Origin: a virus
DNA: 64,000 bases
Strand: one strand, 5' to 3'
IMG/VR virus record: IMGVR_UViG_3300005826_000037
Span: 1 to 64,000 of that record
In this document: one piece after another, positions 8,266-63,266 of the stretch
Layout: each line of letters begins with the position of its first letter
Numbering within the stretch: the first letter of the stretch is position 1
Notes under the pieces: generated by a model
Database searches by the model: none
Told to the model about the DNA's origin: nothing
The model's input: the letters and a program-made list of their open reading frames with translations, nothing else
Made by a program: the position numbers and the translations under genes

Positions 8266-8268
8266 ATT

Positions 8269-9099: not shown

Positions 9100-9115
9100 A
9101 GTTTAATATATCCTA

Positions 9116-10096: not shown

Positions 10097-10164
10097 AACT
10101 TACACCTTACAATATGAACATAGCTAAAAAATAACTTATGTTTGATACGACTATATCAGCAGTA

Positions 10165-10872
10165 TTATTTTTTGCCCCACTTTTCTACAAATATCTTCCT
10201 TGCATTTTTATATAGTTGATAAGTATTGAGCTGTTTACTCGTTTGTTTACCAAAATGTACAACAGGGATATCCACTACTTCAAATTGAATTCCAAGTTCC
10301 CTAGCCCTAAAAGAAAGGTCAGTATCCTCAAAATATGCTAATCCATATTCAGTTGAGAAAATCTGTACAATATGATAATCATCTGAAATGATACCTTTTC
10401 GTGGCACCTCTAATTTATCCCAAACTTGTTTAGATGAAGCTAAACACCAACCAGACATATATGATTTCCCAGGTAATACTTTATTTGCCTCTTGAACAAA
10501 ATTAAGAGAACTATCTAATTGACCCATAGTTGGACCAACAAGAGCATTATCACATTTATCTATAATCTTTTGTGTCCAGGTTGCATGATCGGATTTTACC
10601 CTGATATCATTATTAAGAAATAATACATTTTCACCTTCAGAAACAGTGTAACCCATATTACATCCACAAGCAAACCCCTGATTTGATGTCATTCTTATGT
10701 ATTTTATCTCTTTAGAACCCTCAAGTGATTTTTGAGTTTCATCTGTACTACCATTATCTACTATGATTATTTCATGGTCGTCCGGTAATTGTACTAAATC
10801 CTTAAGACAACTCTTCGAAAAGTTCCACTTGTTGAATACCGGAATTACTATCGACATTTTCTTCATTATCAA
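10165..10872 (-). CDS. Glycosyltransferase family 2
   Basis: SIVIPVFN, IIIVDNGSTD, NQGFACGCN, LFLNND, YFEDTDLSFRA. Confidence 0.9.
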   Translation of the reverse strand: MIMKKMSIVIPVFNKWNFSKSCLKDLVQLPDDHEIIIVDNGSTDETQKSLEGSKEIKYIRMTSNQGFACGCNMGYTVSEGENVLFLNNDIRVKSDHATWTQKIIDKCDNALVGPTMGQLDSSLNFVQEANKVLPGKSYMSGWCLASSKQVWDKLEVPRKGIISDDYHIVQIFSTEYGLAYFEDTDLSFRARELGIQFEVVDIPVVHFGKQTSKQLNTYQLYKNARKIFVEKWGKK

Positions 10873-10990
10873 AATTTCCTTTTAATTCGTCTAATATCCT
10901 TTTTATTAATTCTCTAAATTTTCTGTTTTCTGCATCAACAGTATTGTATGTCATTTCATTATTTGAGTTTATTATTAATTTACGACCCAT
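10802..10990 (-). CDS. Small hypothetical protein
   Basis: 62-aa ORF in a chain of overlapping small ORFs; overlaps the GT2 start. Confidence 0.35.
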   Translation of the reverse strand: MGRKLIINSNNEMTYNTVDAENRKFRELIKRILDELKGNFDNEENVDSNSGIQQVELFEELS

Positions 10991-11183
10991 TATGATTTTT
11001 TTCTATAGTAAAACTCTTTTCAAAATTAGAGTCAATCTTTACCTTTCCTAACTCTATAAATGTATTACTATTTCCTGATTCATAATTAATACCGATAATA
11101 ATCCAACCTTTTTCCAATATCCTCATTTCATTTTTAGAGGTTATTACAACTCTAGTTTTCATTTCTAATAATGTCCTCTTCAA
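10980..11183 (-). CDS. Small hypothetical protein
   Basis: 67-aa ORF; true start may be the downstream ATG (MKTRV) following GAGGA. Confidence 0.45.
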   Translation of the reverse strand: MKRTLLEMKTRVVITSKNEMRILEKGWIIIGINYESGNSNTFIELGKVKIDSNFEKSFTIEKNHNGS

Positions 11184-11358
11184 TATCTATGTGTTTGATT
11201 TCTTTCAAACGCCCTTTGGCTACACCTTTAGGATTAATAATAGCAACCCCAATTGTTTCTTTTACTTTCCATCTAAGAAGATTAATTCTAATATACATCT
11301 TGTTTTCAGAAGATATTATCAAAAAATTATGTTTAAATTTTGATTTACAATTGTTCAT
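11152..11358 (-). CDS. Small hypothetical protein
   Basis: 68-aa ORF whose start overlaps the nuclease stop codon. Confidence 0.45.
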   Translation of the reverse strand: MNNCKSKFKHNFLIISSENKMYIRINLLRWKVKETIGVAIINPKGVAKGRLKEIKHIDIEEDIIRNEN

Positions 11359-12509
11359 TCACATAAACTTTCTAAATGACATTTTTGGCACCAATTGCCC
11401 CTCTTAATATTTGCTGGCAAAGCCTGCCAAATATGCCCATTTTTACACTGAAATAACATATATTTATCAGATCTAATATAATATTCTGATAAACACTTAC
11501 CACCATGAGATTGTGAAATTTTCAAGATTTCATAAAATTTTTTGATTTTATAATTTTTAATACGGCACATTTTACAAATATCTTTATTTTTTACTAATTT
11601 ATGTTTAATATTAGCTAAGTCCTCTTTCCATTTATAACCACATTCACATTGCCATTTTAATTTAAAAGATGACCCGGCATAAAAATCAGATAAACAATTG
11701 ACATTATATGCGTTTTTTATATCTTTTTTTATATTCATGAATTCTTGGCTATAAATACAAGAAAAATCAATATTTATGTCGTCATAATCTTTTGGTAATT
11801 TGATACCAATATTTAAACACTCATTCTTAATAAATAATTTTAGATCACTGATTTTTATTTTTTCTTGTAGTGATGGTATTATAATAAGTGATATTCCTCT
11901 ATCATAACAAATTTTTTTCTTTATTAAATCATGTTCTTTTTGTTTATTACAATCACCACCAAACCATTCTACATCTCTATAATGTTGCATTCCATTATGT
12001 TCAAAAGCAATACCAAGCTCTATACAATAACCATCTAATTCTAACCTATTCCCATTTTCATTTATCAACCAAGAAGGTCTTGTTTTGACAAATGATTTAC
12101 CAAAAATAGTTTCAAAATACAATCTGCATATCTTTTCATATAACCCGCTTGAACAATATGGACACCAACGATTACTTATAATTTCTGCATATGAGGCACT
12201 CCATATATGTCCAATTTCACATTGCCATAATAGTTTTGATTTATTATTTATATATTTTCCACCAATACATTTTCCCTTTTTATTACTCGCTATTTCTTGT
12301 GCATGCATCATAGATTTTTTATTATTTCCTGCACAAACAGAACACCAACTACCTTTCCTAATAGAATCATATGTGGTATCCCAGATATGATTTTTAGAAC
12401 ATTTTATTTTGAGTTTTGTTTTTACATCATTATACTCATTAGTTAATAATACACCACCTTGGTTCTCAACTATATCTTTAATCTTACTTATTCCTATTTT
12501 TCTACTCAT
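11355..12509 (-). CDS. Zinc-ribbon-repeat PD-(D/E)xK / Vsr-like endonuclease (probable homing endonuclease)
   Basis: Four C-x2-3-(H/Y)-x-W...CxxC repeats around LELDGY...IAFEHNGMQHY...D-x-x-K nuclease core. Confidence 0.75.
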   Translation of the reverse strand: MSRKIGISKIKDIVENQGGVLLTNEYNDVKTKLKIKCSKNHIWDTTYDSIRKGSWCSVCAGNNKKSMMHAQEIASNKKGKCIGGKYINNKSKLLWQCEIGHIWSASYAEIISNRWCPYCSSGLYEKICRLYFETIFGKSFVKTRPSWLINENGNRLELDGYCIELGIAFEHNGMQHYRDVEWFGGDCNKQKEHDLIKKKICYDRGISLIIIPSLQEKIKISDLKLFIKNECLNIGIKLPKDYDDINIDFSCIYSQEFMNIKKDIKNAYNVNCLSDFYAGSSFKLKWQCECGYKWKEDLANIKHKLVKNKDICKMCRIKNYKIKKFYEILKISQSHGGKCLSEYYIRSDKYMLFQCKNGHIWQALPANIKRGNWCQKCHLESLCE

Positions 12510-12521
12510 ATAAATATGAAA

Positions 12522-13661
12522 TTATATGCACATATCAATAATTTTTCTTGTAACAGCTTCCCAGGTATAATTTGGAAGTATTTCTTTTATTTTTGGAGAG
12601 AACTTTGCATGATAATCTCCATAATTATTTACGACATCTTTTAATGCTGCCGCAGCTTTATCAACACTTGGATCAAACACTCTTGCATATGGGGAAGGTT
12701 CCCAATATTGAAGTCTAGCATCTGCTCTTATTGTTTTACCTTCAATTAATACGGAATTATCATCATTCATGAAATCTAATTGACCACCATATTTAGGGGC
12801 AACAACAATGCAATCTCCTCCAAATCCCTCCAAACCAGGCATCCAAAAACATTCAGCACGAGACATTGAAAACACAATATCACAAGCATTATACAGAGTT
12901 TCAATATCAACCACAAAATGATCTATTATCTCAATCTCTCCATGTTTCTTAAATTCATGATAAAAATCTTTTAATATCTGATTGAATGGAACACTATCAG
13001 CTGTTACTTGGGGACTCTTCTTAGATACTTTCAAAACCAAACAAACATCATCTTTGCTTGTAAACGCCTTTCCATATGCTGCTAGAACATTTGGAATATT
13101 CTTTCTTAAATGCGGCTGAGCAATATTTACAAGTATCTTATATTTTTTCTTTGTCTTTAACGGATACTTGCCAAGTTTTTCAAATCTATCCAAATAAATA
13201 CCATGAGGAATAACAACTTGTTTATCCCTTGATACTCCATTTTTAGCAAAAATATCTTTAGAAAACTCAGATGATGGTAGCATTTTATCTATGTATTTAG
13301 CATGCTTAGCAAATGCTTTTGGAAGATAATCTGTCTCATAATTCCAAATACCAAATCTATTCTTATCTCCCCTTATGAAATAATGTCTGAAATTCTTCAT
13401 AGCAGTATATGATAACTGCATATCATAATTTTTTTCAAGTTTAGATCCAACAAGAGCTTCATAATTATCTTGGATAAGAGGAGTTCCCTCCTCAACAAAC
13501 CCCTTTAAATTTGGAAGCAAATCTTCTGGAAAATAAGAATTTCCATTAGTTGAAAAAAGATCAACTTTATGACCCATTTTTACTAATTCTCGGGAAATAT
13601 TTTGTGCTACAATACTCCACGAAAAATTTTTGGAAAGAAATCCGTACCAACATATTTTCAT
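12522..13661 (-). CDS. Glycosyltransferase family 4 (GT-B)
   Basis: VIPHGI, RKN, LYNACD, SRAECFWMPGLE (E-x7-E), YTWEAV. Confidence 0.88.
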   Translation of the reverse strand: MKICWYGFLSKNFSWSIVAQNISRELVKMGHKVDLFSTNGNSYFPEDLLPNLKGFVEEGTPLIQDNYEALVGSKLEKNYDMQLSYTAMKNFRHYFIRGDKNRFGIWNYETDYLPKAFAKHAKYIDKMLPSSEFSKDIFAKNGVSRDKQVVIPHGIYLDRFEKLGKYPLKTKKKYKILVNIAQPHLRKNIPNVLAAYGKAFTSKDDVCLVLKVSKKSPQVTADSVPFNQILKDFYHEFKKHGEIEIIDHFVVDIETLYNACDIVFSMSRAECFWMPGLEGFGGDCIVVAPKYGGQLDFMNDDNSVLIEGKTIRADARLQYWEPSPYARVFDPSVDKAAAALKDVVNNYGDYHAKFSPKIKEILPNYTWEAVTRKIIDMCI

Positions 13662-45686: not shown

Positions 45687-46975
45687 GTGAACTACTACTG
45701 ACTAAAGCCAGGAGCTTCTACCTTCTTTGACCTTTCTACTGAAAGCGCCTCCGGTAGTTTTTGATACGGGACTGCGTTCCACAACCCCAAGTTTATCATG
45801 CCTTTTTCTCTAATATTTAAAGCGGCATTTAAATCTCTATCATGATCTTCACTACAAATTGGACAAGTCCACTCTCTAATATTTAGAGGTAAACTATCAA
45901 CTACAAATTTACACTTATTGCATGTTTTGCTACTTGGAAAAAATCTATCTATCTGATGAAAAGTTCTTCCATACCATTTAGCTTTATATTCCAACTGCCT
46001 TGTTAATTCTCCCCAAGATGCATCTTGAATACTTTTAGAAAGTTTATGGTTCTTAATCATATTCTTCATAGATAAATCCTCAGCAATTATAACTTGGTTT
46101 TCGTTAATTAGTTGATGAGTTATTTTGTGAAGTTGATCTAATCTTCTATTAGATATTCTTTGATGCAATTTAGCAACTCTAAGTCTTCTTTTTTTTCTAT
46201 TAGAAGAACCTTTTTGTGATCTGGAAAGTTTTCTCTGATGAAAAGCTAATTGTTTTTCACTTTGCCTGTAGAACTTATGATTGCTAAAATATTCACCTTC
46301 AGAAGTTATTACCAAATCTTTTAAACCTAAATCTATTCCAAGTGAAAAATCATTCTTTGGTAGTTCTTCAATATTTAGTTTGCATAAAATTGAAGCAAAA
46401 TATTGATTTGAAGGATTTTTAGAAATGAACAAGCATACTTGATTATCTGGCAGTTCTTGATGCAAATTAATTTTAATACTACTATTAAGTTTAGGAATAT
46501 GTAGTTTATTATTAATAACCTTAAAATTCTGTGGTATTTTAAATGATTGCTTATTAGTTTTTTTATGAAAATTAGGAAAACTACTTTGTTTCTTAAAAAA
46601 ACGGAGATAAGCAATATCAAGATTTCTTAAAGAGAACTGAAGAGATTGAGAATTAATATCTTTTAACCAAGTGAGTTCATCTTGTTTTTTAAGTTTAGTT
46701 AATTCTTTACTATCTTGGTGATAGTTAGATAATTTCTTATTATTTAGATATTCATCTTTTCGTTTAGCTAAAAAGTAATTATATACATATCTTATGGCAC
46801 CAAACTGTTGAGCTAGAAATTGTTTCTGTTCATTAGTTGGATAGATACGAAATCTAAAACTTTTCAGCACTTCATTCATATTAGAATATATATCACATCA
46901 TTAGTAAAGATTTTTACAAAAAAATGCAAAAAATTTAAATTGCAAATTAACCCTCTGCCTAAAGAGATTTTTTGG
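45687..46975 (-). mobile_element. IS200/IS605-family non-autonomous (TnpB-only) element
   Basis: Right end GAAGCTCCTGGC-TTTA-GTCAGTAGTAGTTCAC ending at 45687; degenerate CTTTAGGCAGAG hairpin near 46950-46970 as candidate left end (approximate); no tnpA in the window. Confidence 0.7.
45695..46879 (-). CDS. tnpB: RNA-guided endonuclease TnpB
   Basis: N-terminal FRFRIYPT...RYVYN HTH; RuvC-I GIDLG, RuvC-II AEDL, Zn ribbon SSKTC-x2-C...CPIC, RuvC-III DRDLNAALNI; catalytic D-E-D intact. Confidence 0.95.
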   Translation of the reverse strand: MNEVLKSFRFRIYPTNEQKQFLAQQFGAIRYVYNYFLAKRKDEYLNNKKLSNYHQDSKELTKLKKQDELTWLKDINSQSLQFSLRNLDIAYLRFFKKQSSFPNFHKKTNKQSFKIPQNFKVINNKLHIPKLNSSIKINLHQELPDNQVCLFISKNPSNQYFASILCKLNIEELPKNDFSLGIDLGLKDLVITSEGEYFSNHKFYRQSEKQLAFHQRKLSRSQKGSSNRKKRRLRVAKLHQRISNRRLDQLHKITHQLINENQVIIAEDLSMKNMIKNHKLSKSIQDASWGELTRQLEYKAKWYGRTFHQIDRFFPSSKTCNKCKFVVDSLPLNIREWTCPICSEDHDRDLNAALNIREKGMINLGLWNAVPYQKLPEALSVERSKKVEAPGFSQ

Positions 46976-47712: not shown

Positions 47713-50484
47713 TTATAGTTGACCTAGAGCTACCTTGATGTAAATGAAGTTTACTGGGTAGGTTGGTTGTACTCTTACTGTTATGTTCCATTGTCTTGGG
47801 TCTGATTCATCTTTAACTACTGAAAGGTCTGCATAAGCTGTAATTAAACTCTGCGAAACTAAGGAGTTCAACAAGATGACAGCGCGTGTATTCAAAGCGG
47901 CAGGAGTCTCTAGTGTTTCTGGTTGACCAATGAAAGAACGGAAACCTGATCTAAGTGTCTTTGCAACTCTATCTCTGATGAATACGATTGAAATCTCTTC
48001 CTCTTCTGGATATCCACTCTGAGTTGTGGTAATTCCCCAAACAACTCTTCCACCACCAGATACTGGTTGTAGTGTAGTAACACCAGCTTGAGCCAATCTC
48101 TCAAGAACAGATTGTGAGAATTGCTTATCTCTAAGGATTGTGAAACCTGTGAAAGTCTTATTAGTAAATGGATTTTCAATCCTAAGATCTTGTGCTGCAT
48201 AACCAGCTGCTGCAGCTGCAATGTAGAAACCATCAATAAGTACATTACTTGTTCCAGCTTGAACAACAATCTGATCTGGATAGAAGTATACACATCTATA
48301 TGTATTACCGAATGCATTTGAAACTGAGTAATCTGCAAGATCTTCGATATTACCAGCAAGAACTTCTGTTACGTTATCACCTTGGATACCTTCAAGAACT
48401 CCGATATCTTCAACTGCTGCTAATGATGTACCTGTCAAATTATCAGGTGTCAATCCATTAATAGCTCCACAGAATAATACTCTTTCCTTCTTATTTCTTA
48501 TATTACTCATTGATTTACAATGTGCAAGAGTATTTTGGAAGATAACAGATATTGTCTGCTTTGGAAGAGGAACAACGATATCACATTCAATAACTTCCAT
48601 TGACTCAAGAGCGTTAATCCATCCTGCATCGTAGAAAGAAGCATCTTTCGTTGTGATAACTGTAATTCTTAATTGGTAAGTATCAGGAACAACATTCTTA
48701 TTTACAACTACATAGTAACTTTCGTCTGTTAAGTCAAGGACTTCAAAACGCATATCACTTTCTTGAATTACACCCTTCCTTATAGTTACCTCAAATGAAG
48801 CTGAAGCTGTAATATCACTCAAACCATCATTTGCTTCATCAGAAGCAGTGATTTGAATTCTATAAAGAGTTCCAATATCTGGAACTGTACTAAAATCAAC
48901 AGTTGCACTTGTTAATGTTGCTGTTGCTGTTCCAGCAGATTTAACCAAAACACCATCTGTTCCAGAATAGCCATCAAGAGCTAATCCTGAGGAGATGCTA
49001 ACAACCTGGAATGCAACACCAGTATCATTTACATAATCTGGGAAGTATGGAGAAGCTTCAGTGCGAGTTACATAAAGATTACCGCCACTTACTGCCGTAA
49101 CAGTGTAGCTACCTTCATTTGCACTATTTGTTGCATTAATAATCTTTAAAGACTTTCCCACATATGATGAGTCATATTCAAGAGAAGAACTGAAAACGCC
49201 ACTATAGTAATTGCTACCACGTGCGATATATCCATCTTCACCATAAGAAAGAGCTTCATAACCAGCCTTCACTGTATAGAAGTATGACCATCCTGCAGGT
49301 GCAGGGGTATCATCAGTAATAAACTGGGTAGTTGTTGGGTATCCTGCTGTATCAAGCAAATAATAGTCCAACTTATTTGGAAGAATTTGAGACTCAACGT
49401 TTGTTGAATTATTCGTTACAAAGAAGTGAATATCAGAGTTTGGATCTGGGACAATACCTGCTGGCAATGGGAAAATGAAGTCATCATTATTTGTAGAAGT
49501 TGCATCCATACTCTCGGTAAGAATGTATGAAGTTCTTCTTGGCATTGCTGGCGCTGTTTGGCAAGCCATAACTGCTGGTGCTTGATTAGCAAATGCAAGC
49601 TGAGCACCTAAACTCAAAGTATTATCTGTGCTTGGGAAGCCATGCTTATTTATAAGAGACTGGAAACTATCGAATAATACAGGATCATTTAAGTTAGTAG
49701 TTGGAATATATGAAGCAGTCAATGTATCATTAGATACAAGAACACCACTATCAACTATGATTGTAAAACCATCACCCTCTCTAAATGGAGTTACTGACGA
49801 ACCGCCGCTCTTTGTTTCATAAATTGCAAAACTCAATACACCATTAGAAACTGCAGTTCCATTTGCGGTCCAAATTATTGGATTTCCATTTGAATCAACC
49901 TTTGCCCCAGAAATCGATCCAAAAGCGATGAATTTTGCAGTATTTTCTATTGGCAATCCTAACGCACTCCTCTGAACAGAAACACATCTAATTGTCCATG
50001 TTTCTGGAGGAGCATTAGTATCAACAAGGGATAAAGAAGCTAAATAACCATCACCAACATTTGTAGAAACTGGAGTATAATAAGCGCCACCTTGATCTCT
50101 CAAATGACCCCTTTGCAACTCTATTCTACCAGTAGTAATATCAACTCTGTAATCATATCTACTACTGAATGCGTTGCTATCTATGGTTGCTTCCAATCCT
50201 GTAAGCAAAACTCCATTTTTATACAATGAGGTTCTAGCAGAAACAACTGGATATGAGGACAATTGGAAATGTCTTCCATCTGCCCCTGTAGTTGAAGTGT
50301 ATGCAGAGTTAAATCCATCAACCCCTCCTCCAACTGCTTGGGCAACAATGGTTTCGTCTGCCGAACCCTCACCCATAATTGCTGCTATACGAGTACCACC
50401 AGGAATTGATACTCCCCTGGATTGTGTTACTATATCTGTAAAAACTCCTGGTAGGACATTTGTTGCGCCTGGGATGTTTGCCAT
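47713..50484 (-). CDS. Tail sheath protein
   Basis: N-terminal PGVFTD; C-terminal LAQAGVT...VVWGITT...EISIVFIRD...VQPTYPVNFIYI. Confidence 0.92.
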   Translation of the reverse strand: MANIPGATNVLPGVFTDIVTQSRGVSIPGGTRIAAIMGEGSADETIVAQAVGGGVDGFNSAYTSTTGADGRHFQLSSYPVVSARTSLYKNGVLLTGLEATIDSNAFSSRYDYRVDITTGRIELQRGHLRDQGGAYYTPVSTNVGDGYLASLSLVDTNAPPETWTIRCVSVQRSALGLPIENTAKFIAFGSISGAKVDSNGNPIIWTANGTAVSNGVLSFAIYETKSGGSSVTPFREGDGFTIIVDSGVLVSNDTLTASYIPTTNLNDPVLFDSFQSLINKHGFPSTDNTLSLGAQLAFANQAPAVMACQTAPAMPRRTSYILTESMDATSTNNDDFIFPLPAGIVPDPNSDIHFFVTNNSTNVESQILPNKLDYYLLDTAGYPTTTQFITDDTPAPAGWSYFYTVKAGYEALSYGEDGYIARGSNYYSGVFSSSLEYDSSYVGKSLKIINATNSANEGSYTVTAVSGGNLYVTRTEASPYFPDYVNDTGVAFQVVSISSGLALDGYSGTDGVLVKSAGTATATLTSATVDFSTVPDIGTLYRIQITASDEANDGLSDITASASFEVTIRKGVIQESDMRFEVLDLTDESYYVVVNKNVVPDTYQLRITVITTKDASFYDAGWINALESMEVIECDIVVPLPKQTISVIFQNTLAHCKSMSNIRNKKERVLFCGAINGLTPDNLTGTSLAAVEDIGVLEGIQGDNVTEVLAGNIEDLADYSVSNAFGNTYRCVYFYPDQIVVQAGTSNVLIDGFYIAAAAAGYAAQDLRIENPFTNKTFTGFTILRDKQFSQSVLERLAQAGVTTLQPVSGGGRVVWGITTTQSGYPEEEEISIVFIRDRVAKTLRSGFRSFIGQPETLETPAALNTRAVILLNSLVSQSLITAYADLSVVKDESDPRQWNITVRVQPTYPVNFIYIKVALGQL

Positions 50485-52458: not shown

Positions 52459-55400
52459 TTATGTAGTGAACGTATAATCATCATATACCAATCCATCAAC
52501 ATGAACCGCATAGTAAGTTTTTTCATCAAAACTAGTACCAGTACTATATGGGCTAATATATGCCAAAGATGTTGCAGATAATGTGTTGTTAATAATATGT
52601 ATTGTTCCCTTTTTAGGCTCTTTTCTAACAAACTTAGACCCTATATAATCTGCAACTGATACTATTATCCAGGACGCTCTATTACCATCAATTACTACAT
52701 ATGAAGAAGTATATGCACAAGTATTAATTTGTTTAGCCTGAACAGATGAATACTCAGCAATTGAATATGCTAAACCTTTATAGTCAAGATTTGTAATTAC
52801 ATTACATGTGTTTCTAGAAATTGTTAACCCAAATTCTTTGTTGTTATCTCTTGTAATATTTGGAGATTCATTAATTATTCTTCTTCCTTCACCAATCCAA
52901 TAACCAATTGCACCACAAATATTATCTTTGATTACACAATTTTGTGCAGCAAGATATGTCGGATACATAGCTTTTACATTGTTAGCAGTAGTATATGTTG
53001 TTGATGTCAAAACTATCATCTGATTTCTATCACATACATTTCTTGAAATCTCAAAATTTCTAATAGTAGGTGGTGTTTGCTCAGATATAGATGTGCTATT
53101 ATTTATAACAGCTATTGCTGCTCTAAAATCATCAACAGTTCCTGAAGACTCTATATTATTAAACTTACAATTTGTTATTTTAACATTCTCTACTAAATCA
53201 CCATTATCTAAATTAAAGTTTATAAATGTCAATCTGTTATCTGTACTAATAAATGCATTTCCAAACTTAAACTCAGTATTATTTATTTCTATATTATACG
53301 CCTCTGTATTTGTAAAATACATAAATCCATTACCATTATTTATCAAATCATCAACATCATAGCTTATCTCTAAACCAGGAACATAAGTATTTTCAATATA
53401 ACAATTTTTAACTAACATATCGTGAAAATAACTATTTTCTACTGAAATTGCTCTTCTAAAATTGCCACTAATTGAGCTTTCACTAAATACAAGATAGCTA
53501 CTATTACCATAAAACTCATTAGTTATATAGAAAACATCACCAGGTCTATATGAACCATTATTAAAATTAACAGTAACATCACTGTTAATAAAACTGAAAT
53601 TACTAATATCATCAAGATTAAATACTCTGCCACCTTCACTCGTTGGGCTTCCATAGGTTGCAGTTATACTACAGTTTTTAAAAGTTATATTGTTAGAAGA
53701 TAATAACTGAGCCAATATATTATCAGTTGGCGTTGTTGATGGATAAAAATAAATTGTACAATTTTCAAAAACTACATTGTTACTTAAAAATATTCCAAGT
53801 AGCTTCTCAAATGTAATTGTCATATTTCTTATCACAATATCATTGCCTGAGATAACTAAATTTTCACTAAAAGTTAATGATGATGTATTTCGACCATCAA
53901 TATTTGCGCTATCTAATGTAATTGGTTTAGTTATTGTTTCTGCAACTTCATTTATGATAATATTGTTATTGTGAGAACCACCATACTTTAACCAATTGAA
54001 AATTGATTCCACACTGTAAAAATTACCTTGTTTTGAATTATTGTTCAAAATAATTGTATCATTAGATTCATTATCATTTACAAATTTTCTAACATCATTC
54101 AATACAAGAGAAATACTAGAGCCGCTAACAGTAGATGAAACTATATAAAGAGGCGTCAAATCTTTTCTATTATTAACAAGATCAGAAAAAGTTATTGCTT
54201 CAATATAATATGAGGAAGTCGTTGCTGGATTATAAGCATTGAAGTTTCTATTTCCACTTGGAGTACTCAATATCGAATCATAATCAAGTGATGGAATTGC
54301 TTGAAAATCTCCCGAATTGCTTACACAAAGAATCCAATTTATATTGTATAGTGTTGAGAAATAAATCTCTTTAATGATCGGTATAGATACCGTCTCATTA
54401 TTCATATAGATTATTTTTCCGCCAACTAATGCAGAACCTCCAGAAAGATAGATCTGACCACTATTTGGATTAGATATAGGAGTCACATCTTGTGCATCAA
54501 ATCCTTTAAAAACACCATTCTGATGAAGTAGCTTATCCGGAAGAGAAATATAATCTAAAGCTGATGTACTAAGTTCATCTTCACTAACATTTCCAAATTG
54601 TCTCTTATCAGTTACATAATTAATATAATTAGTTTCAGTATTATACTGACAACTAGCCACCATCATAATTTCTTTATCAGCACTAAGACTTGGAAATAAT
54701 TGTATATCTACAACTTCTTCTGTTATGTTTGAAAAAGAACCATCCACAGGGAATAATACATCTATATAATCTACATTCGTCTCATCATAAAACCTTAGAA
54801 CTTGACCAAGTCTTCCAGTTGTTGTAGGACCAATATGTGTTAAATTAGTCCCATCATAAGACGCAAGATAACCATCAATCAAACCACTAGAAGAAACCAA
54901 ACTATCTATATATAAAGATATCTTTGTTATCGAACTAAATTGATACCCTCTTAATTTGGGAGATATACCAATTAATTCCATTTTGCTTAATTCAACTGTC
55001 GTTAATCTTAATGGTATAGAATTTACTGTAATGTCACCAGTTCCATTTGTAAATCTTCCACGTTCATGAGCAAATGTCTTTGCTTCCTCATCAACGTAAA
55101 TTTCCAGATATCTCTTGAATGGGGATGCAGTAGTATAATCAGACATATTTTCAGAATTTACAGGCACTGAACCTGAATTGAAATAAATCCTAAAATGACC
55201 GCTACTTGCGCTTGTGTATGGTGAGGAACCTGTTCCATGTACAGCATCATATACAGTAACATCTGTGTAACAATCAACTCCACATTCTGTAAATACAACA
55301 CTAGATACTACAAAACGTCCATAGTCTATATAATTAATAGTAGGAGACATCGGTTGAACCACAACAGTTGAACCTGGTCTAATATTAACTGATGATAATA

Positions 55401-57342
55401 TATTATCTAAAATACGATATGTTGTACTTACTTTACCATTTGGTGCGGGAGTTTCAGATCTTGCAACGATATAACCATCCCAATAACCAAATCCATATCC
55501 ATCTTGTGTCTGTCCTGACTCAAGAGTTAATTTATCTCTTTCAGTTCCATTAACATAGAAATTATTTCTATCAAGAGGAACATAGAGTTTTGTTGGATAT
55601 AGTGCTTGAGCTGAAGAAGAATAACTTACAGAGTATGCAGGGCTAGATATTCCACCATTTAATGGTCCAAGACCAAGAGGATCTACTGGCTCTAATGTTC
55701 CACTTCCAAACAAACCAATTACATTATTAGGGTATGCATAATTAGTTTCTGACTCATCATAATCTCCAGCTGCATCAACTGCACCATCAAGCACTGAAAA
55801 TGCAGCATTACTATATGGATCAGCAAGGGCGATACCAAATTCACCTTGATATGAGAATGCTATAAATCTGTAGTTATATCCTGCTTTTCTAAAAGTATCA
55901 TTAATTGTCTGCACAACAGTATCTAATGTATACTTTCCGGGAGTAACACCAAGGTTTCCTGTAACGTCTATTTCAGGCAAAACTACATATCCATCATCAG
56001 CATTTCCAGTAGGATATAATGCTAAATACAAAAGATAATGTGAAGAATCAATTAAATCTGCATTAAATCCGACACCAAGAGCCATTGCACCTGTTGGATT
56101 TGTAACTATTAAGCTTGCAGGTAATGATATCTCATCATTGTTTGCTGATGCTACAGCCAAAACCCCATATTTATTGTTATTATACAATGGTCTTTCAACC
56201 TTAGCATATCCATCAGTTGTGTAATATAGATTATTACTACTAATTCTTACAAAAAATCTACTAGGAGTTCCTGGAATATACTTCTTCTCTTTGATAAGGA
56301 AAGGAATCTCAACTGTACCATAATTGATCCTTATTATATCTCCAACCTTTGCTAAAGCAAATTGTGAGTCAAATAAGAAGCTTGATGTAGCAGATGAATT
56401 TGGAGTGAATTCTATAATGTCATCACCATATTCGATATTATCAACAGGAGAGCTACTAGAACCATTATTTCTAAGATGTGTAGTAACTTGAGTTGATGGA
56501 ACAATAGTTTGCCCACGTGCATCTGCAGTAAGAACTGCGGATCTAGAAGCTCTAGAAACACCATTAGAATACAGATTCTGAATTCTTGTTCCGTATAAAA
56601 AGATGCTAGCATCATCAAGGTGTTGGGCAAATAATTGCAAATCATTTACTGTTTGTGGTATTACAGAAAATCTAGTTGTATCAAGGTAAATACCAGAAGA
56701 TGTGTGAGCATAATCAGCAGGGTAAGTACCGCCATTATTTGTAGTTATTGAGATTGAAGACGTACCAGACCCATCAGACCATTGGTGATTGAGAACTTCA
56801 GAGTTCAATTCATTCAATGCTGTGTATGAGTCTGTATTATCTCTGTATGTTCTGTATCTACTAAGGAAATAATCTGTTGCACTTTCACTGACACTAATTC
56901 CACTAAGTGGATGCTTATAAGTTATACCAAGAATATGTGGTTCTAACTTTATTCCTGTTAAAGATATCCATGAAATAGAAGTATTTATATCACCAGCAAG
57001 ATCTCTAGTATAATTAAATAAATCAGCAGTTTTATAATCAAGAGATAATTTAGATTCAGGAATTCCTGCATTGTTCGCTATTTGTGGGTTTGTAATTGGT
57101 AGAGTAACTAAACCTAAACTTGTTAATGCAGATGGTTTTATATATCCATCTGCTCCAATAGAAATCCCAAGCCTATTGGCAAGAGTACCTGCGCTTCCAG
57201 ATAAACCCAATCCAAACTCAGCTTGCATATTAAATATGGCTTCGCGACATCCATTTATAGCTTCATCACCAATTTCAGTTATATTATTGTTAACTGGAGG
57301 AAGTGTTGTGTCATCATCATAATCGTTAGGGTAGTTACTCAT
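52459..57342 (-). CDS. Large fibre/tailspike protein with C-terminal right-handed beta-helix (pectin-lyase-like)
   Basis: NVVFENCTI, NITFKNCSI, NVKITNCKF, EISRN, VIKDN, IINN repeats; beta-rich N-terminal structural domains. Confidence 0.7.
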   Translation of the reverse strand: MSNYPNDYDDDTTLPPVNNNITEIGDEAINGCREAIFNMQAEFGLGLSGSAGTLANRLGISIGADGYIKPSALTSLGLVTLPITNPQIANNAGIPESKLSLDYKTADLFNYTRDLAGDINTSISWISLTGIKLEPHILGITYKHPLSGISVSESATDYFLSRYRTYRDNTDSYTALNELNSEVLNHQWSDGSGTSSISITTNNGGTYPADYAHTSSGIYLDTTRFSVIPQTVNDLQLFAQHLDDASIFLYGTRIQNLYSNGVSRASRSAVLTADARGQTIVPSTQVTTHLRNNGSSSSPVDNIEYGDDIIEFTPNSSATSSFLFDSQFALAKVGDIIRINYGTVEIPFLIKEKKYIPGTPSRFFVRISSNNLYYTTDGYAKVERPLYNNNKYGVLAVASANNDEISLPASLIVTNPTGAMALGVGFNADLIDSSHYLLYLALYPTGNADDGYVVLPEIDVTGNLGVTPGKYTLDTVVQTINDTFRKAGYNYRFIAFSYQGEFGIALADPYSNAAFSVLDGAVDAAGDYDESETNYAYPNNVIGLFGSGTLEPVDPLGLGPLNGGISSPAYSVSYSSSAQALYPTKLYVPLDRNNFYVNGTERDKLTLESGQTQDGYGFGYWDGYIVARSETPAPNGKVSTTYRILDNILSSVNIRPGSTVVVQPMSPTINYIDYGRFVVSSVVFTECGVDCYTDVTVYDAVHGTGSSPYTSASSGHFRIYFNSGSVPVNSENMSDYTTASPFKRYLEIYVDEEAKTFAHERGRFTNGTGDITVNSIPLRLTTVELSKMELIGISPKLRGYQFSSITKISLYIDSLVSSSGLIDGYLASYDGTNLTHIGPTTTGRLGQVLRFYDETNVDYIDVLFPVDGSFSNITEEVVDIQLFPSLSADKEIMMVASCQYNTETNYINYVTDKRQFGNVSEDELSTSALDYISLPDKLLHQNGVFKGFDAQDVTPISNPNSGQIYLSGGSALVGGKIIYMNNETVSIPIIKEIYFSTLYNINWILCVSNSGDFQAIPSLDYDSILSTPSGNRNFNAYNPATTSSYYIEAITFSDLVNNRKDLTPLYIVSSTVSGSSISLVLNDVRKFVNDNESNDTIILNNNSKQGNFYSVESIFNWLKYGGSHNNNIIINEVAETITKPITLDSANIDGRNTSSLTFSENLVISGNDIVIRNMTITFEKLLGIFLSNNVVFENCTIYFYPSTTPTDNILAQLLSSNNITFKNCSITATYGSPTSEGGRVFNLDDISNFSFINSDVTVNFNNGSYRPGDVFYITNEFYGNSSYLVFSESSISGNFRRAISVENSYFHDMLVKNCYIENTYVPGLEISYDVDDLINNGNGFMYFTNTEAYNIEINNTEFKFGNAFISTDNRLTFINFNLDNGDLVENVKITNCKFNNIESSGTVDDFRAAIAVINNSTSISEQTPPTIRNFEISRNVCDRNQMIVLTSTTYTTANNVKAMYPTYLAAQNCVIKDNICGAIGYWIGEGRRIINESPNITRDNNKEFGLTISRNTCNVITNLDYKGLAYSIAEYSSVQAKQINTCAYTSSYVVIDGNRASWIIVSVADYIGSKFVRKEPKKGTIHIINNTLSATSLAYISPYSTGTSFDEKTYYAVHVDGLVYDDYTFTT

Positions 57343-57778: not shown

Positions 57779-59221
57779 TTAAGCTACTTTAACTAAATCC
57801 ATTTTAACATGAATGTTCCAGTATGAGGTAATACCACCAGTGGTATTATATGAGGTCCTAATAACAATATCATTACCTGTAAGATTATATATAGGAGCGG
57901 CACTCCAAGTACCACCAGTAGATGAATGAACTGTAGTTATACCAGTTTGAGTTACAGAGCCTGTTATCCTATTTGTAGCAAGAATTTGTTTTTTCTGATA
58001 ACAATTTCCATTACTACCAACACCAACTGCAGTAATTTCAATCAATGCAGCAGAATATTGAGGCATTGTTATTGTCAAAACATCTACCGTCGCCGTAGTT
58101 GCTGTAGCATTTACCTGATATCCATCTCCAGGATTATCAAGATTGTCTCCTACTTTATAAGAATCGGCAAGTGCCTCTGATACTCCTAATGAATAATCAT
58201 TATTATCAGTTTGTACTACACGAAGTTTTCCAGCAGTTGAATATAATATAGAACCTGTATAATTTGGACCCCTTGTAGGTGTTGGTGATGAATTGCCAAT
58301 ATAAATAATTTTACTACCAGTATTTTCAGGTAATCTACTAGTAAGTGTCGTTGTGTCTGAACAAAATGCAACTACTTTTCTACTACCAATTTCTCCAATT
58401 GACTGAATTTCTTCTACAAATAATAAAATATCACTACTATTATTTGCCTGTGTACCAATCCAAACTCCTCCATGCAATTCAGAAGAAGAATACCCTCCTC
58501 CCAAATATAACCTTCCTCCTTTATCAACCGTAGAACCTTGAGCCCTAAGTTTTAAACCATTTCCAACTCCTGTTGTTCTAGAACTATAAAATCCAATATT
58601 ATAACTATCTAAAATACTACCTTCAAATAATATATTTGAACAATTTACAGTCAACACTGAATCTCCATCACCAGTTACACTGACAATTTCTATATTATTT
58701 GATGTTCCGCTTACATCTCCACCAACTACTAAATTTCCAGGAACCCATTGACTTCCACTCCAATATAAAACATTATTTGTCGATGGAGAAGAACTACTAA
58801 TAGCATTTCCTCTAAGTTTAATTACAGATACAGAATTATAAGATCCACTAATATCACCCCCCAAAGAAACAGGTCCCCAACCAGAACCGTTATATCCTAA
58901 TATCTGACCAGATGTAGGAGATGAAGATAATACCGGTGTTGCCTGTAATCTTGAGACTAATGGAGAAGAATAAGTTCCTCCCAAATCTCCTGTCAATTTT
59001 ATTCCACCAGTTACTGATGCTGTTGCATTAGGGAATACTCCAGGAATATAACCAGAAATAGCTGTAAGTGCCGATTGTATATCTGTATATGGAGTTCCAT
59101 CAATTGTTACAGAACAAGCAATTGCTCCGCCCAAATGTTGATATGCGTATCCATCAACATGATTTTGAAAATCATATCGACTAGTTGCTAATTGCCCAAT
59201 TCCCGGTCTATAATTTCCCAT
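57779..59221 (-). CDS. Fibre/whisker-like virion protein
   Basis: Repeats LTGDLGG / LGGDISG / VGGDVSG and GQILGYNGSGWGP / NNVLYWSGSQWVP typical of fibre shafts. Confidence 0.6.
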   Translation of the reverse strand: MGNYRPGIGQLATSRYDFQNHVDGYAYQHLGGAIACSVTIDGTPYTDIQSALTAISGYIPGVFPNATASVTGGIKLTGDLGGTYSSPLVSRLQATPVLSSSPTSGQILGYNGSGWGPVSLGGDISGSYNSVSVIKLRGNAISSSSPSTNNVLYWSGSQWVPGNLVVGGDVSGTSNNIEIVSVTGDGDSVLTVNCSNILFEGSILDSYNIGFYSSRTTGVGNGLKLRAQGSTVDKGGRLYLGGGYSSSELHGGVWIGTQANNSSDILLFVEEIQSIGEIGSRKVVAFCSDTTTLTSRLPENTGSKIIYIGNSSPTPTRGPNYTGSILYSTAGKLRVVQTDNNDYSLGVSEALADSYKVGDNLDNPGDGYQVNATATTATVDVLTITMPQYSAALIEITAVGVGSNGNCYQKKQILATNRITGSVTQTGITTVHSSTGGTWSAAPIYNLTGNDIVIRTSYNTTGGITSYWNIHVKMDLVKVA

Positions 59222-59232
59222 TATTTTATTCC

Positions 59233-61242
59233 TTAAGGTAACACAATAGTGTGCGTATGACCCAATACAATCGATACAACACCTGCAATAATTTGATGAT
59301 TATGTCCTTGTGAAACATTTGTAGTTTGATTTATTTGAGAAATTGATGTAATACCTTCGTTTACAACAATCTCATGAGTATGTGGCAGGATATTTGAAGC
59401 AACACCAATACTTGTATTCAACTTTGAAGGAAACATACTAGTATCGCTAAATATTCTTATTTGATAAGCTGGATCAAACTTTCTAATTCTTTGCGCCCTA
59501 AATTTTTGACCGCCTTGCTGCCCAATCATAGTATTATTTCTAGTTACAGATAATACTTCATACCTATACTCTTCATTTCCATTAAGGTCATATAATACTA
59601 TAATATCCCTATCTTTTATAGTAGGAACTGTAAGTGTCCAAAATTCTGTCTGAAACTCAGACTCCAAACCAGCTTCTGTCATTTTTACATCTTCTTCGGT
59701 TGGTCCAGGTCTTACCAAAATTCTACCATCAGATCTTCTTGGATTAAAATATTGTTCATATCCAATGACAAATTTAGTACCATGACATAATGGGCATCTA
59801 TCATCTGGATACTCACTAGACTCAAGATAACAAGAGCAAGTTATTCCTGTTCTAGTTCTCTTAATAAGAACTGCTTGTTTACCAGTATTATCTAAAAGAA
59901 CCTCTTGACGTTGATTATTATGATCTTGAACAGAGAATCCTCTAAGTACATTATAATTTCCATACTTATCAATACATCCCATTTCTCCACCAATATAACT
60001 TCCAACACATGTTCCATTTAATAATTGAACTGGATCTGTTCTATGATATCCGGCATAATCATACCTTGGAAAATCTATATTTTCTTCATCACTCACACTT
60101 AAATCAGATGTTAATAAATCTTTTGTTACTTGATGATATCCGTCCGTCGCTGTGTATGGATAATTGGGATATTCAAATCTTGACTCACACAAAAATATAT
60201 TGTCATATTTTGTATCCTCTCCCGATACAAAATAAATAACAGCAGGATTCCAATATAAATCACCATCATAGCCATCTGTATTATGTAATGTAGCAGTAGT
60301 TCCGCTATACCCTCTACCTCCAGCAATTGTTTCAGATCCATCAACACCAATGATAAATGAATCCCCTTCAACAAATGGATATCCATCATATTCAACTATT
60401 GAAAAACTAAATATTCCATTGGATATGTTATAACCATCAGCTGTCCAAATATATGGGTCTGAATATCCATCCCTTACAGCGCCAACATAAGGGTTTGTAT
60501 AACCATCTTTAACATATCCATCAGTAGGATAAACAACTCCAGAATATGACCCAACAGATATAAACTTTGCAGTTGATTCTATTGGATTTCCATATCCATC
60601 TTTTTGAACAGAAATACATTGTATTTTCCATGTTTCTGTTATTGCGCTAAGATCTTCCAGAGTTAAATTAGCTAGATATCCATCACCAACATTTCCATAT
60701 GAAGGAAGATAATTAGATCCTCCTTGATCTATAAAATGAGCGCTGATAAACGTATCACCAGGAACACCTAATGTATTAGCTATAGAATTTGTAGTTGTAT
60801 AATGAATTAATTCTGCACCAATTCTTACAACTCCTTCATCAGGAAAATCAGTAACATCCATTAGTGGGATTATTAAATCAGTACTTGTTATATTGTTCGC
60901 TAATAAACTACTAGGAACAATTCTTAAATTATCGTAAGCAACCAATAAATTTGTTAAATCGGTCACTGACTCATCATATTCCACAGCTCTAACGGAAAAG
61001 AAATACAATTGTCCTGGAGTTAAATCAATGATGTTTGCTTCTGTAGCACCATCAATAGATACATACTTAACACCCTCAGAAAATACATCTTCCTTAATTG
61101 TAGAATAATAAATATAATAGGCGATACTATTTGTAGATATTGTTGGGTACGCTTGGTGCCACTTCAAATTAATGGTATAGCCATCGCCCAAGCTGGTTAA
61201 AGCATCTAAACCGCCAATTATAGGTGATGGATAAAAAACCAT
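59233..61242 (-). CDS. Neck / head-closure-like protein with FN3-like N-terminus, CxC...CxxC motif and His-rich tail
   Basis: INLKW...YYIYY...LTPGQLYFFSVRA (FN3); CSC...CPLCHGT; PTIKDRDIIV...RYEV; PHTHEI/GHNHQI/GHTHTI. Confidence 0.6.
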   Translation of the reverse strand: MVFYPSPIIGGLDALTSLGDGYTINLKWHQAYPTISTNSIAYYIYYSTIKEDVFSEGVKYVSIDGATEANIIDLTPGQLYFFSVRAVEYDESVTDLTNLLVAYDNLRIVPSSLLANNITSTDLIIPLMDVTDFPDEGVVRIGAELIHYTTTNSIANTLGVPGDTFISAHFIDQGGSNYLPSYGNVGDGYLANLTLEDLSAITETWKIQCISVQKDGYGNPIESTAKFISVGSYSGVVYPTDGYVKDGYTNPYVGAVRDGYSDPYIWTADGYNISNGIFSFSIVEYDGYPFVEGDSFIIGVDGSETIAGGRGYSGTTATLHNTDGYDGDLYWNPAVIYFVSGEDTKYDNIFLCESRFEYPNYPYTATDGYHQVTKDLLTSDLSVSDEENIDFPRYDYAGYHRTDPVQLLNGTCVGSYIGGEMGCIDKYGNYNVLRGFSVQDHNNQRQEVLLDNTGKQAVLIKRTRTGITCSCYLESSEYPDDRCPLCHGTKFVIGYEQYFNPRRSDGRILVRPGPTEEDVKMTEAGLESEFQTEFWTLTVPTIKDRDIIVLYDLNGNEEYRYEVLSVTRNNTMIGQQGGQKFRAQRIRKFDPAYQIRIFSDTSMFPSKLNTSIGVASNILPHTHEIVVNEGITSISQINQTTNVSQGHNHQIIAGVVSIVLGHTHTIVLP

Positions 61243-61813: not shown

Positions 61814-62653
61814 ATGGGAATAAAATTTGAAAAAAAGATATATGATGAATCATTCGAAAAAGAAGTGGTAAAAAAATATATAGAGGTACAATCAATCAAA
61901 AAAACATCATATGAATTCGAAATATCAACAAGGCAAATAACTAATATTTTAGATAAACATAGTATTGCACACAATATAACCAGAAAAATACAAATGAATG
62001 AAGAATATTTTGATAAAAATGATGATGAGATTATTGGAAATGATGTTATGTACTGGGCAGGATTCATTGCTGCTGATGGAAATGTTATGAATAATTCAAA
62101 TACACGAAGTTATTTTTTAACAATAAAATTATCTAAAAAAGATAAAAACCATCTTGAACAGTTCAGAAAATGTATTCAAACAAATGCTACAATAAAAGAC
62201 AAAACGCATCCTTCTAAATACTATTTAGACAGATATTGGAAAAAAACTTATTCTAGCACTATTGTTCTTAATTCAAAATACCTAGTTAACTCACTAACAA
62301 AATATAACATCATCCCTAATAAAACTAAAATATATGAATTCCCACAAATACTAAAAGAACATAAATTTGTAAATTCTTTCATAAGAGGATATTTAGATGG
62401 TGATGGCAGTATTTCTTTTAAAAACGAATCATTAAGAATCAATTTTTATGGAACACAAAATTGCCTAACAAATATATCTGAAGTTATAACAAATGAATGT
62501 GGTATATCAATACACTCTCCTTTTAAAAATAGAACCATTTATAGTTTAGAATATAATAGTCAAGATGCTGTTTTATTAGCAAAATGGTTGTACAAAAAAC
62601 AAAATATATATTTGGAAAGAAAATTCAAACTTATTGAAAACCTAATAAAATAG
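61814..62653 (+). CDS. Free-standing double-motif LAGLIDADG homing endonuclease
   Basis: YWAGFIAADGNV and FIRGYLDGDGSI motifs, N-terminal HTH, C-terminal YLERK; GGAG RBS. Confidence 0.9.
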   Translation: MGIKFEKKIYDESFEKEVVKKYIEVQSIKKTSYEFEISTRQITNILDKHSIAHNITRKIQMNEEYFDKNDDEIIGNDVMYWAGFIAADGNVMNNSNTRSYFLTIKLSKKDKNHLEQFRKCIQTNATIKDKTHPSKYYLDRYWKKTYSSTIVLNSKYLVNSLTKYNIIPNKTKIYEFPQILKEHKFVNSFIRGYLDGDGSISFKNESLRINFYGTQNCLTNISEVITNECGISIHSPFKNRTIYSLEYNSQDAVLLAKWLYKKQNIYLERKFKLIENLIK

Positions 62654-62693: not shown

Positions 62694-63266
62694 ATGGCTC
62701 TTTTAGGTATAAAAGTTCCTCAATCAATAGCTAGAACATTAAGACAAATAGATGCCCCTGGTAAAAAAGAGGACTCTTCCGATTTTCATATCACATTATT
62801 AATATTCAATGAAGATATTAGTATATCTGAGGTTGCGAAATCAGTAGAAGCTATTGGTAATGCAATAAAAGATGTAAATCCTTTCAAATTGAAACTAAAC
62901 AAAGTTTCATGTTTTCCAAAGCGTGGAGATAATCCTGTTCCTATAATTATGCCTATTGAGTCCGAAGATCTTCAAGAATTACGATCTAAAGTAAAAAAAG
63001 CTCTTAAAAAACATAAAGTTGAGTTTAATGATACATTCAAAGAATACAGACCTCACATTACATTATCATATGATGAAAATGAAGTAAAAGACTTTAAAGT
63101 CGATAAAGAGGAATTTATGGTGGATGAAATTGTGTTGTGGTCAGGAAATGAAGGTTTAAATGAAAAGGAATTATTTGTGACTTTCCCTCTTAGTAGCAAA
63201 AAGAAAAAGAATTCTGCATTACTAAGACGTATTGAATATTTCTATAAAATGGCTGTGCATTTATAA
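62694..63266 (+). CDS. 2H phosphoesterase (LigT/ThpR/Acb1-like)
   Basis: Two HxT motifs FHITL and PHITL about 90 aa apart; AAGGAG RBS. Confidence 0.88.
   Translation: MALLGIKVPQSIARTLRQIDAPGKKEDSSDFHITLLIFNEDISISEVAKSVEAIGNAIKDVNPFKLKLNKVSCFPKRGDNPVPIIMPIESEDLQELRSKVKKALKKHKVEFNDTFKEYRPHITLSYDENEVKDFKVDKEEFMVDEIVLWSGNEGLNEKELFVTFPLSSKKKKNSALLRRIEYFYKMAVHL

Follow-up and report, generated by a model that had tools for sequence, protein, structure and literature searches.

A paralogue of a predicted tail sheath insertion domain in a stopper-type neck protein of a huge phage, and the apparent repeated gain of Asp-Gly-Tyr at its turns

Stoppers are head-completion proteins that form a hexamer between the adaptor and the tail terminator. 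The stopper of Staphylococcus phage 812 (gp97; PDB 8q01, 8qgr) also carries an external beta-sandwich domain and a Zn-binding tetra-cysteine loop, the latter described as conserved only in Herelleviridae (PMC12886913). Additional domains are likewise known from phage tail sheath proteins, where they sit away from the tube-contacting core and have been proposed to aid adhesion (PMC9230969). Thus, extra domains on sheaths and stoppers are already known; reuse of a sheath outer domain in a stopper is, to our knowledge, undescribed, and our literature search found no report of a sheath domain common to a neck protein. The present study concerns a 64,000-nucleotide stretch of viral DNA (the window; positions 1 to 64,000 of IMG/VR virus record IMGVR_UViG_3300005826_000037), in which a predicted stopper-type neck protein, P0001, and a predicted contractile tail sheath protein, P0002, share a domain. 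The neck copy of this domain is laden with the tripeptide Asp-Gly-Tyr (DGY). Since the source record of 113,644 bp is 26% complete according to CheckV, the full genome probably measures about 440 kb; contigs of its relatives reach 480 kb. We consider it likely that an all-beta domain of about 140 amino acids, derived from the sheath, lies on the outside of the neck, and that DGY is a selected surface motif in it and not a folding element.

The original prediction had aligned the two copies by eye, at 60335-60738 and 49745-50106. The former span falls inside an open reading frame (ORF) of 669 codons at 59233..61242 (minus strand, like all the genes surrounding it), which encodes P0001; the latter falls inside an ORF of 923 codons at 47713..50484 (minus strand), which encodes P0002. 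BLASTP places this alignment on firm ground, as residues 169-301 of P0001 and 127-245 of P0002 share 63 of 138 positions (46%) with an E value of 2e-29. The neck copy extends over residues 165-305 (60328..60750, minus strand) and the sheath copy over residues 119-254 (49723..50130, minus strand). An AlphaFold2 (AF2) model of the neck copy (m368d388f3735, from a 31-sequence alignment) is all-beta and confident, with a predicted local distance difference test score (pLDDT) of 88.5 and a predicted template modelling (TM) score of 0.82. For the sheath copy, the fold was represented by the BFVD model of a 952-residue homologue, which superposes on the neck-copy model with a TM score of 0.81, a root-mean-square deviation (rmsd) of 0.7 Å and 43% identity. 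The neck and sheath domains are paralogues, that of the sheath being its predicted first insertion domain.

Among solved structures, the best fold match of the shared domain is the outer beta domain of FlgL/FlgK (PDB 5ziz, 7c7z, 4ut1, 9go6). Foldseek gave an E value of 3.6e-3 and a TM score of 0.47, VIA gave Z-scores of 8.3, 8.2 and 8.0 (84-94 residues aligned), and a Flagellin_N/flgK_1st entry among the Atlas structures reached a TM score of 0.52 (range 0.45-0.52). The FlgL/FlgK domain is an outer insertion domain of helical-tube subunits at the hook-filament junction, much as the sheath copy would be in the tail. The match is borderline, as best Z-scores of 7-8 are typical for models without true matches, and the identity of 14-22% comes with no sequence signal; the likeness may reflect a common beta arrangement only.

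P0001 is predicted to be a stopper-type head-completion protein, and its earlier label of neck protein was right. Its modelled layout comprises an N-terminal FN3 domain, a linker, the sheath-type domain, a middle region, a stopper core with a tetra-cysteine loop and a tail with HxH motifs. In the whole-protein AF2 model (mceab8dbbfde0, from an alignment of 67 homologues; pLDDT 82.7), residues 437-590 match the T1 stopper 9l0e_A (Z 10.7, rmsd 3.4, 118 of 123 residues aligned) and the FCWL1 stopper 9jlf_C (Z 10.4), both of which align over the whole stopper length. The phage 812 stopper 8q01_S matches the core (about residues 436-598) with a Z-score of 10.4 over 140 aligned residues, and Foldseek also matches the model to the Pam3 neck chain 8hdr_A (TMt 0.72). 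The tetra-cysteine loop (59785..59838, minus strand) reads C469-S-C471-(x)11-C483-P-L-C486, with each cysteine present in at least 90% of the 67 homologues. It follows the published pattern except for its second residue, Ser in place of Pro (PMC12886913), and may bind metal. Apart from the beta-barrel core and the C-x-C...C-x-x-C loop, P0001 and gp97 of phage 812 are alike in bearing extra beta domains, presumably external in P0001 too, and in being encoded upstream of the sheath and tube genes. Here the neck gene precedes fibre-like genes, the sheath gene and the tube gene on one strand, an order compatible with a stopper.

Among sequence profiles, no stopper family matched P0001: Pfam returned only fn3 (E 1.7e-4, 22.1 bits, below the cut-off of 25) and PHROGs only phrog_38102, 'virion structural protein', at residues 446-500. 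Sequence searches of the PDB with P0001 and the neck profile gave FN3 matches only, and the profile of the shared domain gave none; none of 50,697 GenBank phage records matched the neck protein in tblastn. The FN3 assignment is backed by a profile match to the neogenin FN3 domain (E 7e-5) and by its fold (Z 10.6, rmsd 2.3). Because no sequence profile names the family, we place P0001 among the stoppers by its fold, its cysteine loop and its gene position. By analogy, it would form a hexamer between adaptor and tail terminator. In contrast to known stoppers of about 120-250 residues, P0001 has 669, matches no stopper family at the sequence level, and adds the N-terminal FN3 domain, the sheath-type domain and a C-terminal tail in which three HxH motifs are invariant.

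Three observations on P0001 and its homologues stand apart from this assignment. The tetra-cysteine loop in the form C-S-C-(x)11-C-P-L-C occurs throughout a clade of huge phages unrelated to Herelleviridae. The HxH motifs of the tail (PHTHE, GHNHQ and GHTHT; 59251-59385, minus strand) contain six histidines that are invariant in the 67 homologues. In trimeric phage fibres, motifs of this kind bind metal, and those of P0001 could form one six-histidine site or join chains. The neck proteins of four relatives (P0006, P0008, P0047, identical to L063:10136-13309, and P0049) are 1064-1097 residues long and contain an intein of about 400 residues with Hint and LAGLIDADG Pfam matches, inserted exactly at the fourth cysteine of the loop, which corresponds to residue 486 of P0001.

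P0002 is, judging from sequence, a contractile tail sheath protein. It matches PHROG tail sheath families with E values of 1.6e-10, 2.1e-7 and 1.1e-5, and its residues 739-919 match Pfam Phage_sheath_1 (28.0 bits, cut-off 31.4) and Phage_sheath_1C (20.1 bits, cut-off 26.9), both below the gathering score. Moreover, the BFVD structure nearest to the shared-domain model, that of the 952-residue homologue, is named tail sheath protein. The shared domain occupies residues 119-254 of 923 and the conserved core residues 739-919, which fits the position of an insertion domain. The additional sheath domains described by Evseev et al. (2022; PMC9230969) likewise lie between the N- and C-terminal parts of the core, and the P0002 domain resembles them in being all-beta and one of several extras in a phage with a large genome. 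Weak fold matches occur at the equivalent position of other sheaths (3hxl residues 91-182, Z 3.5; 9gb1, 8jaj, 9ezm and 3j0h, Z 2-2.5). By the same analogy, the sheath copy would face outward. Unlike those described domains, the P0002 domain belongs to a family restricted to this huge-phage clade and is also present in a second, unrelated virion protein, the putative stopper. A second, diverged copy in the sheath of the window was sought with hmmsearch --max and not found. Candidates for further copies with matches in multiple stretches (P0056, P0059 and P0060) were rejected as weak partial matches in repeat proteins.

The distribution of the domain differs between the two proteins. Scanning IMG/VR with the neck alignment yielded 79 loci. 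Among 71 distinct necks, the domain, a cassette of about 130-145 residues, is present in 26 and absent from 45. Most neck homologues are 520-545 residues long and lack exactly positions ~162-291 of the hidden Markov model (HMM), so that only 3-5 residues separate the flanks '...NNL(x)' and '(x)RGY...'. The cassette boundaries are identical across all homologues, and the insertion site is a short linker of the stopper-type protein. The cassette is dispensable in the neck, since it is missing even in close relatives. Every sheath examined carries a copy. The record of the window contains two copies, and five relatives with cassette-less necks contain exactly one each, in the sheath; two of these five genomes, of 409 and 459 kb, are 96% and 100% complete, respectively. 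Because such relatives keep their single copy in the sheath, we take the sheath copy as universal and the neck copy as derived, the sheath being the presumable donor. In a library of 1.84 billion representative proteins, the domain matched only 47 proteins. All of them are of the sheath type (domain at ~119-255) or of the neck type (~165-295), are fragments of these, or are repeat proteins with weak, partial similarity. Short matches of 248-703 residues, considered as a possible third host protein, all turned out to be collinear sheath fragments. In three loci (L007, L011 and L015), the neck/sheath similarity reaches about 30 residues upstream of the cassette (G-x-x-x-V-G-x-E-L), sheath residues ~87-100 pairing with neck HMM positions 133-145. 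This segment occurs in all necks; the extension is absent for the sheath of the window itself, and it may be an alignment overhang.

Phylogeny of the domain (71 and then 76 copies) separated all 32 neck copies from all sheath copies with Shimodaira-Hasegawa-like support of 0.993 and 0.998, respectively. Since the neck copies form a single clade, the two genes of the window cannot have undergone recent conversion, nor can necks have captured the sheath domain repeatedly; the tree points to a single, old duplication from sheath to neck, after which losses or recombination took place. The presence of both copies in one genome is all that might suggest that their similarity arose by recent gene conversion, intragenomic recombination, or a chance or low-complexity match. 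Such an origin is exceedingly improbable, as the E value is far from chance, the copies are merely 46% identical, neck and sheath copies of many genomes separate cleanly, and both copies of the window fall among their respective orthologues. The neck itself tells of a patchy history. In a tree of the neck core (cassette columns removed), the window clade is sister to the cassette-less L017 and L019 (support 0.95), and the cassette-bearing L001 joins five proteins without a cassette (1.00) in a group that lies within the main clade of cassette-bearing necks. This patchiness would reflect either several precise losses or homologous recombination through the conserved flanks.

The neck copy carries DGY at residues 187, 215, 241, 246, 258, 269 and 286, encoded at 60676-60684, 60592-60600, 60514-60522, 60499-60507, 60463-60471, 60430-60438 and 60379-60387 (minus strand; span 60379..60684, checked by translation). 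The single DGY of the sheath copy, at residue 145 (50044-50052), aligns with residue 187 of the neck. The original count of seven against one is thus exact, and the differences it described are all present, as substitutions (SAL, DSN and NGT against DGY) and a short insertion, namely 19 residues carrying DGY 241 and 246 (VVYPTDGYVKDGYTNPYVG; 60481..60537, minus strand). A small indel, giving YDGY, is also present. Furthermore, DGY is the commonest tripeptide in the proteins of the window (45 occurrences, 4.4 expected). Its near-equivalents behave otherwise: DGF and NGY reach 1.3 and 1.5 times their expectation, EGY is absent (3.4 expected) and DAY is unenriched. Within the domain family (71 copies), there are 61 DGY in the 32 neck and 30 in the 39 sheath copies, compared with 1.4 and 0.8 in composition-preserving shuffles; NGY, EGY, DGW and DGH each count zero against these 91 DGY, and DGF counts 14 (not mapped to sites). 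As a control, we counted the distinct sites per tripeptide. No tripeptide except DGY recurs at 6 distinct sites in at least 4 sequences per site, and DGY occupies 12 sites in total; SNG, which comes second, has 4 and 5, respectively. Raw parsimony step counts were discarded as a control, since conservative toggles such as NGI/NGV score above DGY.

At the DNA level, GAY-GGN-TAY matches 47 times on the coding strand and never on the opposite strand, 45 of the matches being in frame in the listed ORFs, and the codons used for Gly, Asp and Tyr vary. A DNA-level cause of the enrichment is ruled out by this confinement to the coding strand, the frame and the varied codons, and DGY therefore acts at the protein level. 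In the window, only outer virion proteins show the enrichment; DGY is absent from the tube and from several further large proteins of the tail module. Each of the 79 related loci is enriched in DGY, by 5.8-24 fold (median 12), and none of them offered a DGY-poor relative for correlation with gene content. No pattern of compensation (a DGY-rich neck where the sheath is poor) appeared in genomes with both copies. A literature search found no paper on a 'DGY motif' in phage; PMC12619734 concerns another lineage.

We tabulated DGY sites in 76 copies (32 neck and 44 sheath) to ask where the motif sits in either paralogue. At site 187, DGY occurs in 10/32 neck and 11/44 sheath copies; the corresponding counts are 10/32 and 12/44 at site 215, 2/32 and 8/44 at site 222, 16/32 and 9/44 at site 258, and 6/32 and 1/44 at site 269. 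Hence, the same five turns carry DGY in both paralogues. The sheath copies of deep-branching, cassette-less genomes have DGY at 215, 222 and 258, and those of the wider group of the window have it at site 187 only or not at all. DGY at sites 215, 222 and 258 is thus not special to the neck. On the direction of change, the original prediction had left gain and loss open, and gain is the alternative favoured here. By parsimony, 36 changes are needed, most of them gains, and at each of the five sites a root without DGY saves 2-3 steps. Two-state maximum likelihood gives DGY a posterior of at most 0.03 at the root of neck and sheath copies; for sites 187, 215, 258 and 269, the posterior at the P0001+P0006 node is 0.88 or more. 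With an ancestor reconstructed as DGY-free at the five turns, all seven DGY of the neck copy would be gains. On this reconstruction, the NVGDGY found in both window copies is probably convergent and not inherited.

These reconstructions suggest an order of gain in the neck. Sites 187, 215, 258 and 269 would have acquired DGY by the P0001+P0006 ancestor, sites 241 and 246 with the insertion common to P0001 and P0003-P0005, and site 286 in the branch of P0001 itself. The 19-residue insertion is restricted, within the set of aligned domain copies, to P0001 and these three closest relatives, and P0003 and P0004 read DSY and DAY at site 246. Its KDGYTNPYVG and the following RDGYSDPYIW are encoded by segments identical at 21 of 30 nucleotides, which suggests that the insertion is a tandem duplication of the adjacent DGY loop; we word this cautiously, as residues in common and biased codon use would by themselves make the nucleotide identity high.

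Are these DGY needed for the fold? In both AF2 models, DGY 215, 241, 246, 258 and 269 are wholly coil according to DSSP. DGY 286 is coil in the whole-protein model, its Tyr being an isolated strand/bridge residue in the domain model, and at DGY 187 the Asp is coil and the Gly and Tyr open a strand. The insertion with DGY 241 and 246 has a pLDDT below 50. Accordingly, the expectation that the extra DGY fall in loops agrees with both models. The Asp and Tyr columns are among the most variable of the family (entropy 1.5-3.3 bits), the exceptions being the invariant G188 and the conserved D258. Thirty-one of the 76 domain copies have no DGY at all, and the neck copy of the window has the maximum of seven. 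Because so many copies lack it and its Asp and Tyr columns vary so much, DGY is not a core-fold requirement; within the cassette, the same numbers contradict the notion that DGY positions are conserved core residues in homologues generally. The earlier view of DGY as a tag instead of a core-fold element therefore stands in its second part, and the tag itself may be considered as one explanation of the data. The comparison of cassettes supports an exact motif selected at exposed turns; a tag function goes beyond it.

The reading we favour can be put as a sequence of events. The outer domain of the sheath would have been duplicated once into the linker of the stopper as a cassette. Six cassettes per stopper hexamer would then lie just above the top sheath ring, so that the neck displays the same outer surface as the tail. 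In the lineage of the window, the reconstructions show DGY accumulating stepwise to seven by point substitutions at D/N-G turns, a loop insertion and a small indel. DGY would be a selected, position-flexible surface motif. Something probably recognises DGY, most plausibly a phage-encoded modifying enzyme or a binding partner that would read the Tyr in an Asp-Gly turn. Several points weigh against this account. The sheath-to-neck direction follows from distribution only, and the unrooted tree joins the neck clade near the base of the sheath clade, so that it singles out no sheath lineage as donor. The trees were built with FastTree from about 130 columns, several of their internal nodes are weak, and loop columns are hard to align; an earlier tree with fewer sequences gave a DGY-present Fitch root of the sheath at sites 215 and 258, which makes this result dependent on topology. 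Surface exposure of DGY has been read from DSSP coil, low pLDDT and column variability. The hot-spot turns otherwise read D/N-G-x or x-G-T, so that one or two substitutions suffice and the backbone already suits Asp-Gly. Because these turns already carry D/N-G or the invariant Gly (G188), the reuse of sites may reflect structural permissiveness and mutational accessibility and not selection for particular places. Lastly, P0001 has DGY outside the cassette at sites 20, 323 and 367 (~61177-61185, 60268-60276 and 60136-60144, minus strand), found in 49/67, 33/67 and 64/67 homologues, respectively, and cassette-less necks still average 4.3 DGY. At site 367, Gly and Tyr lie in a strand. Since sites 367 and 20 are conserved in position, DGY does not turn over freely everywhere; at these two sites at least, a role in structure or at an interface would fit.

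What DGY does on the virion is a separate question from how it was gained. We tentatively propose, with rather less than even confidence, that it is a recognition motif of three residues, as yet undescribed, on the outside of the virion, either a tyrosine-modification sequon or a docking site for a phage factor, in a clade of phages of ~400-480 kb. A more specific version, which refines the step in which something reads DGY and which we rate as possible but doubtful, is that DGY is an acceptor sequon, a phage glycosyltransferase modifying the Tyr (or Asp) of exposed turns with the neck cassette as a dense acceptor. Short glycosylation sequons include N-x-S/T and, in Bacteroidota O-glycosylation, D-(S/T)-(A/I/L/V/M/T). 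Like these, DGY comprises three residues, is position-flexible and lies in exposed parts of outer proteins whose fold is kept through its gain and loss. It differs from them in its putative acceptor, Tyr or Asp, and in that some DGY sites are strictly conserved, and we know of no described three-residue sequon for tyrosine O-glycosylation. In favour of a sequon, the motif is exact, sits in loops and is found on outer virion proteins only, and Pfam confirms genes for two GT2 enzymes, a GT4 enzyme and a dehydratase at 6277-13661, directly after the baseplate genes. However, motif statistics and gene presence make the link between such enzymes and DGY only circumstantial, and a conserved DGY such as that at site 367 is atypical of a freely placed sequon.

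DGY might also go unread and be merely a favoured turn, in which Asp-Gly forms an Asx or type I' turn and the aromatic residue starts the next strand, having converged for stability. The composition of the hot spots and the invariance of G188 would agree with this, as would the one DGY that straddles coil and strand, its Tyr belonging to the latter, and the positional conservation of some DGY. Yet the physico-chemical near-equivalents are unenriched in the window, and NGY, DGW and DGH are missing from the family; the enrichment is limited to outer virion proteins, with none in the tube, and the copies without DGY fold all the same. We therefore consider a mere turn preference unlikely. Less probable still is that DGY is itself the functional unit, a minimal glycan-binding patch of Asp and Tyr providing multivalent adhesion to host capsule, extracellular polysaccharide (EPS) or mucus. 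An aromatic and an acidic residue are the usual chemistry of sugar-binding sites, and placement in loops of outer domains, selection on number and not on position, and maintenance throughout the clade would all suit adhesion, for which additional sheath domains have been proposed (PMC9230969). Against it, three residues without conserved flanks would be an unusually small site, in which the strict central Gly is not obviously required.

The cassette suggests that, in these huge phages, neck and tail present the same surface to the outside. DGY marks the outer virion proteins of this clade, and the sheath/neck pair shows its repeated gain at turns, not its function. This pair is nevertheless a natural experiment on the motif, with one fold, a DGY load from 0 to 7, convergent gains at the same turns and a strict requirement for Tyr. 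If DGY is a recognition motif, the pair records about 30 independent gains at five turns plus a loop duplication, and a 145-residue domain with seven sites would be its densest natural substrate. Being small and confidently folded, with DGY-poor and DGY-free relatives, the domain makes DGY testable at the bench for modification and for binding of a partner or glycan.

Pfam and PHROGs left the shared domain and most neighbouring genes unnamed. Between the genes of the putative stopper and the sheath lie two encoding fibre-like proteins: one of 480 residues with a DUF5907 repeat and 2 DGY (57779-59221, minus strand) and one of 1627 residues with 6 DGY (52459-57342, minus strand). Their position recalls that of the T4 whisker gene, which sits between neck and sheath genes. 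The sole plus-strand genes of the neck region encode a free-standing LAGLIDADG homing endonuclease (61814-62653) and a 2H phosphoesterase (62694-63266; LigT or 2'-5' RNA ligase-like, with a weak match to Acb1, which acts against the cyclic oligonucleotide-based antiphage signalling system, CBASS); both are wedged in among genes of the neck module. In the tail module, a gene for a 394-residue transposase (45695-46879, minus strand; phrog_506, E 1.6e-125) lies directly downstream of the tube gene. The two GT2 genes and the GT4 gene (8269-13661) are clustered with the sugar-nucleotide 4,6-dehydratase/epimerase gene (6277-8265, minus strand), which is apparently interrupted by an intein (Intein_splicing match at residues 123-427, below the cut-off), the dehydratase resuming at residue ~420. 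Next to genes for a GH25 lysozyme and a UvsW-like helicase, positions 4842-6218 (minus strand) encode a PhuZ-like protein of the tubulin/FtsZ family with a TubZ-like C-terminal domain.

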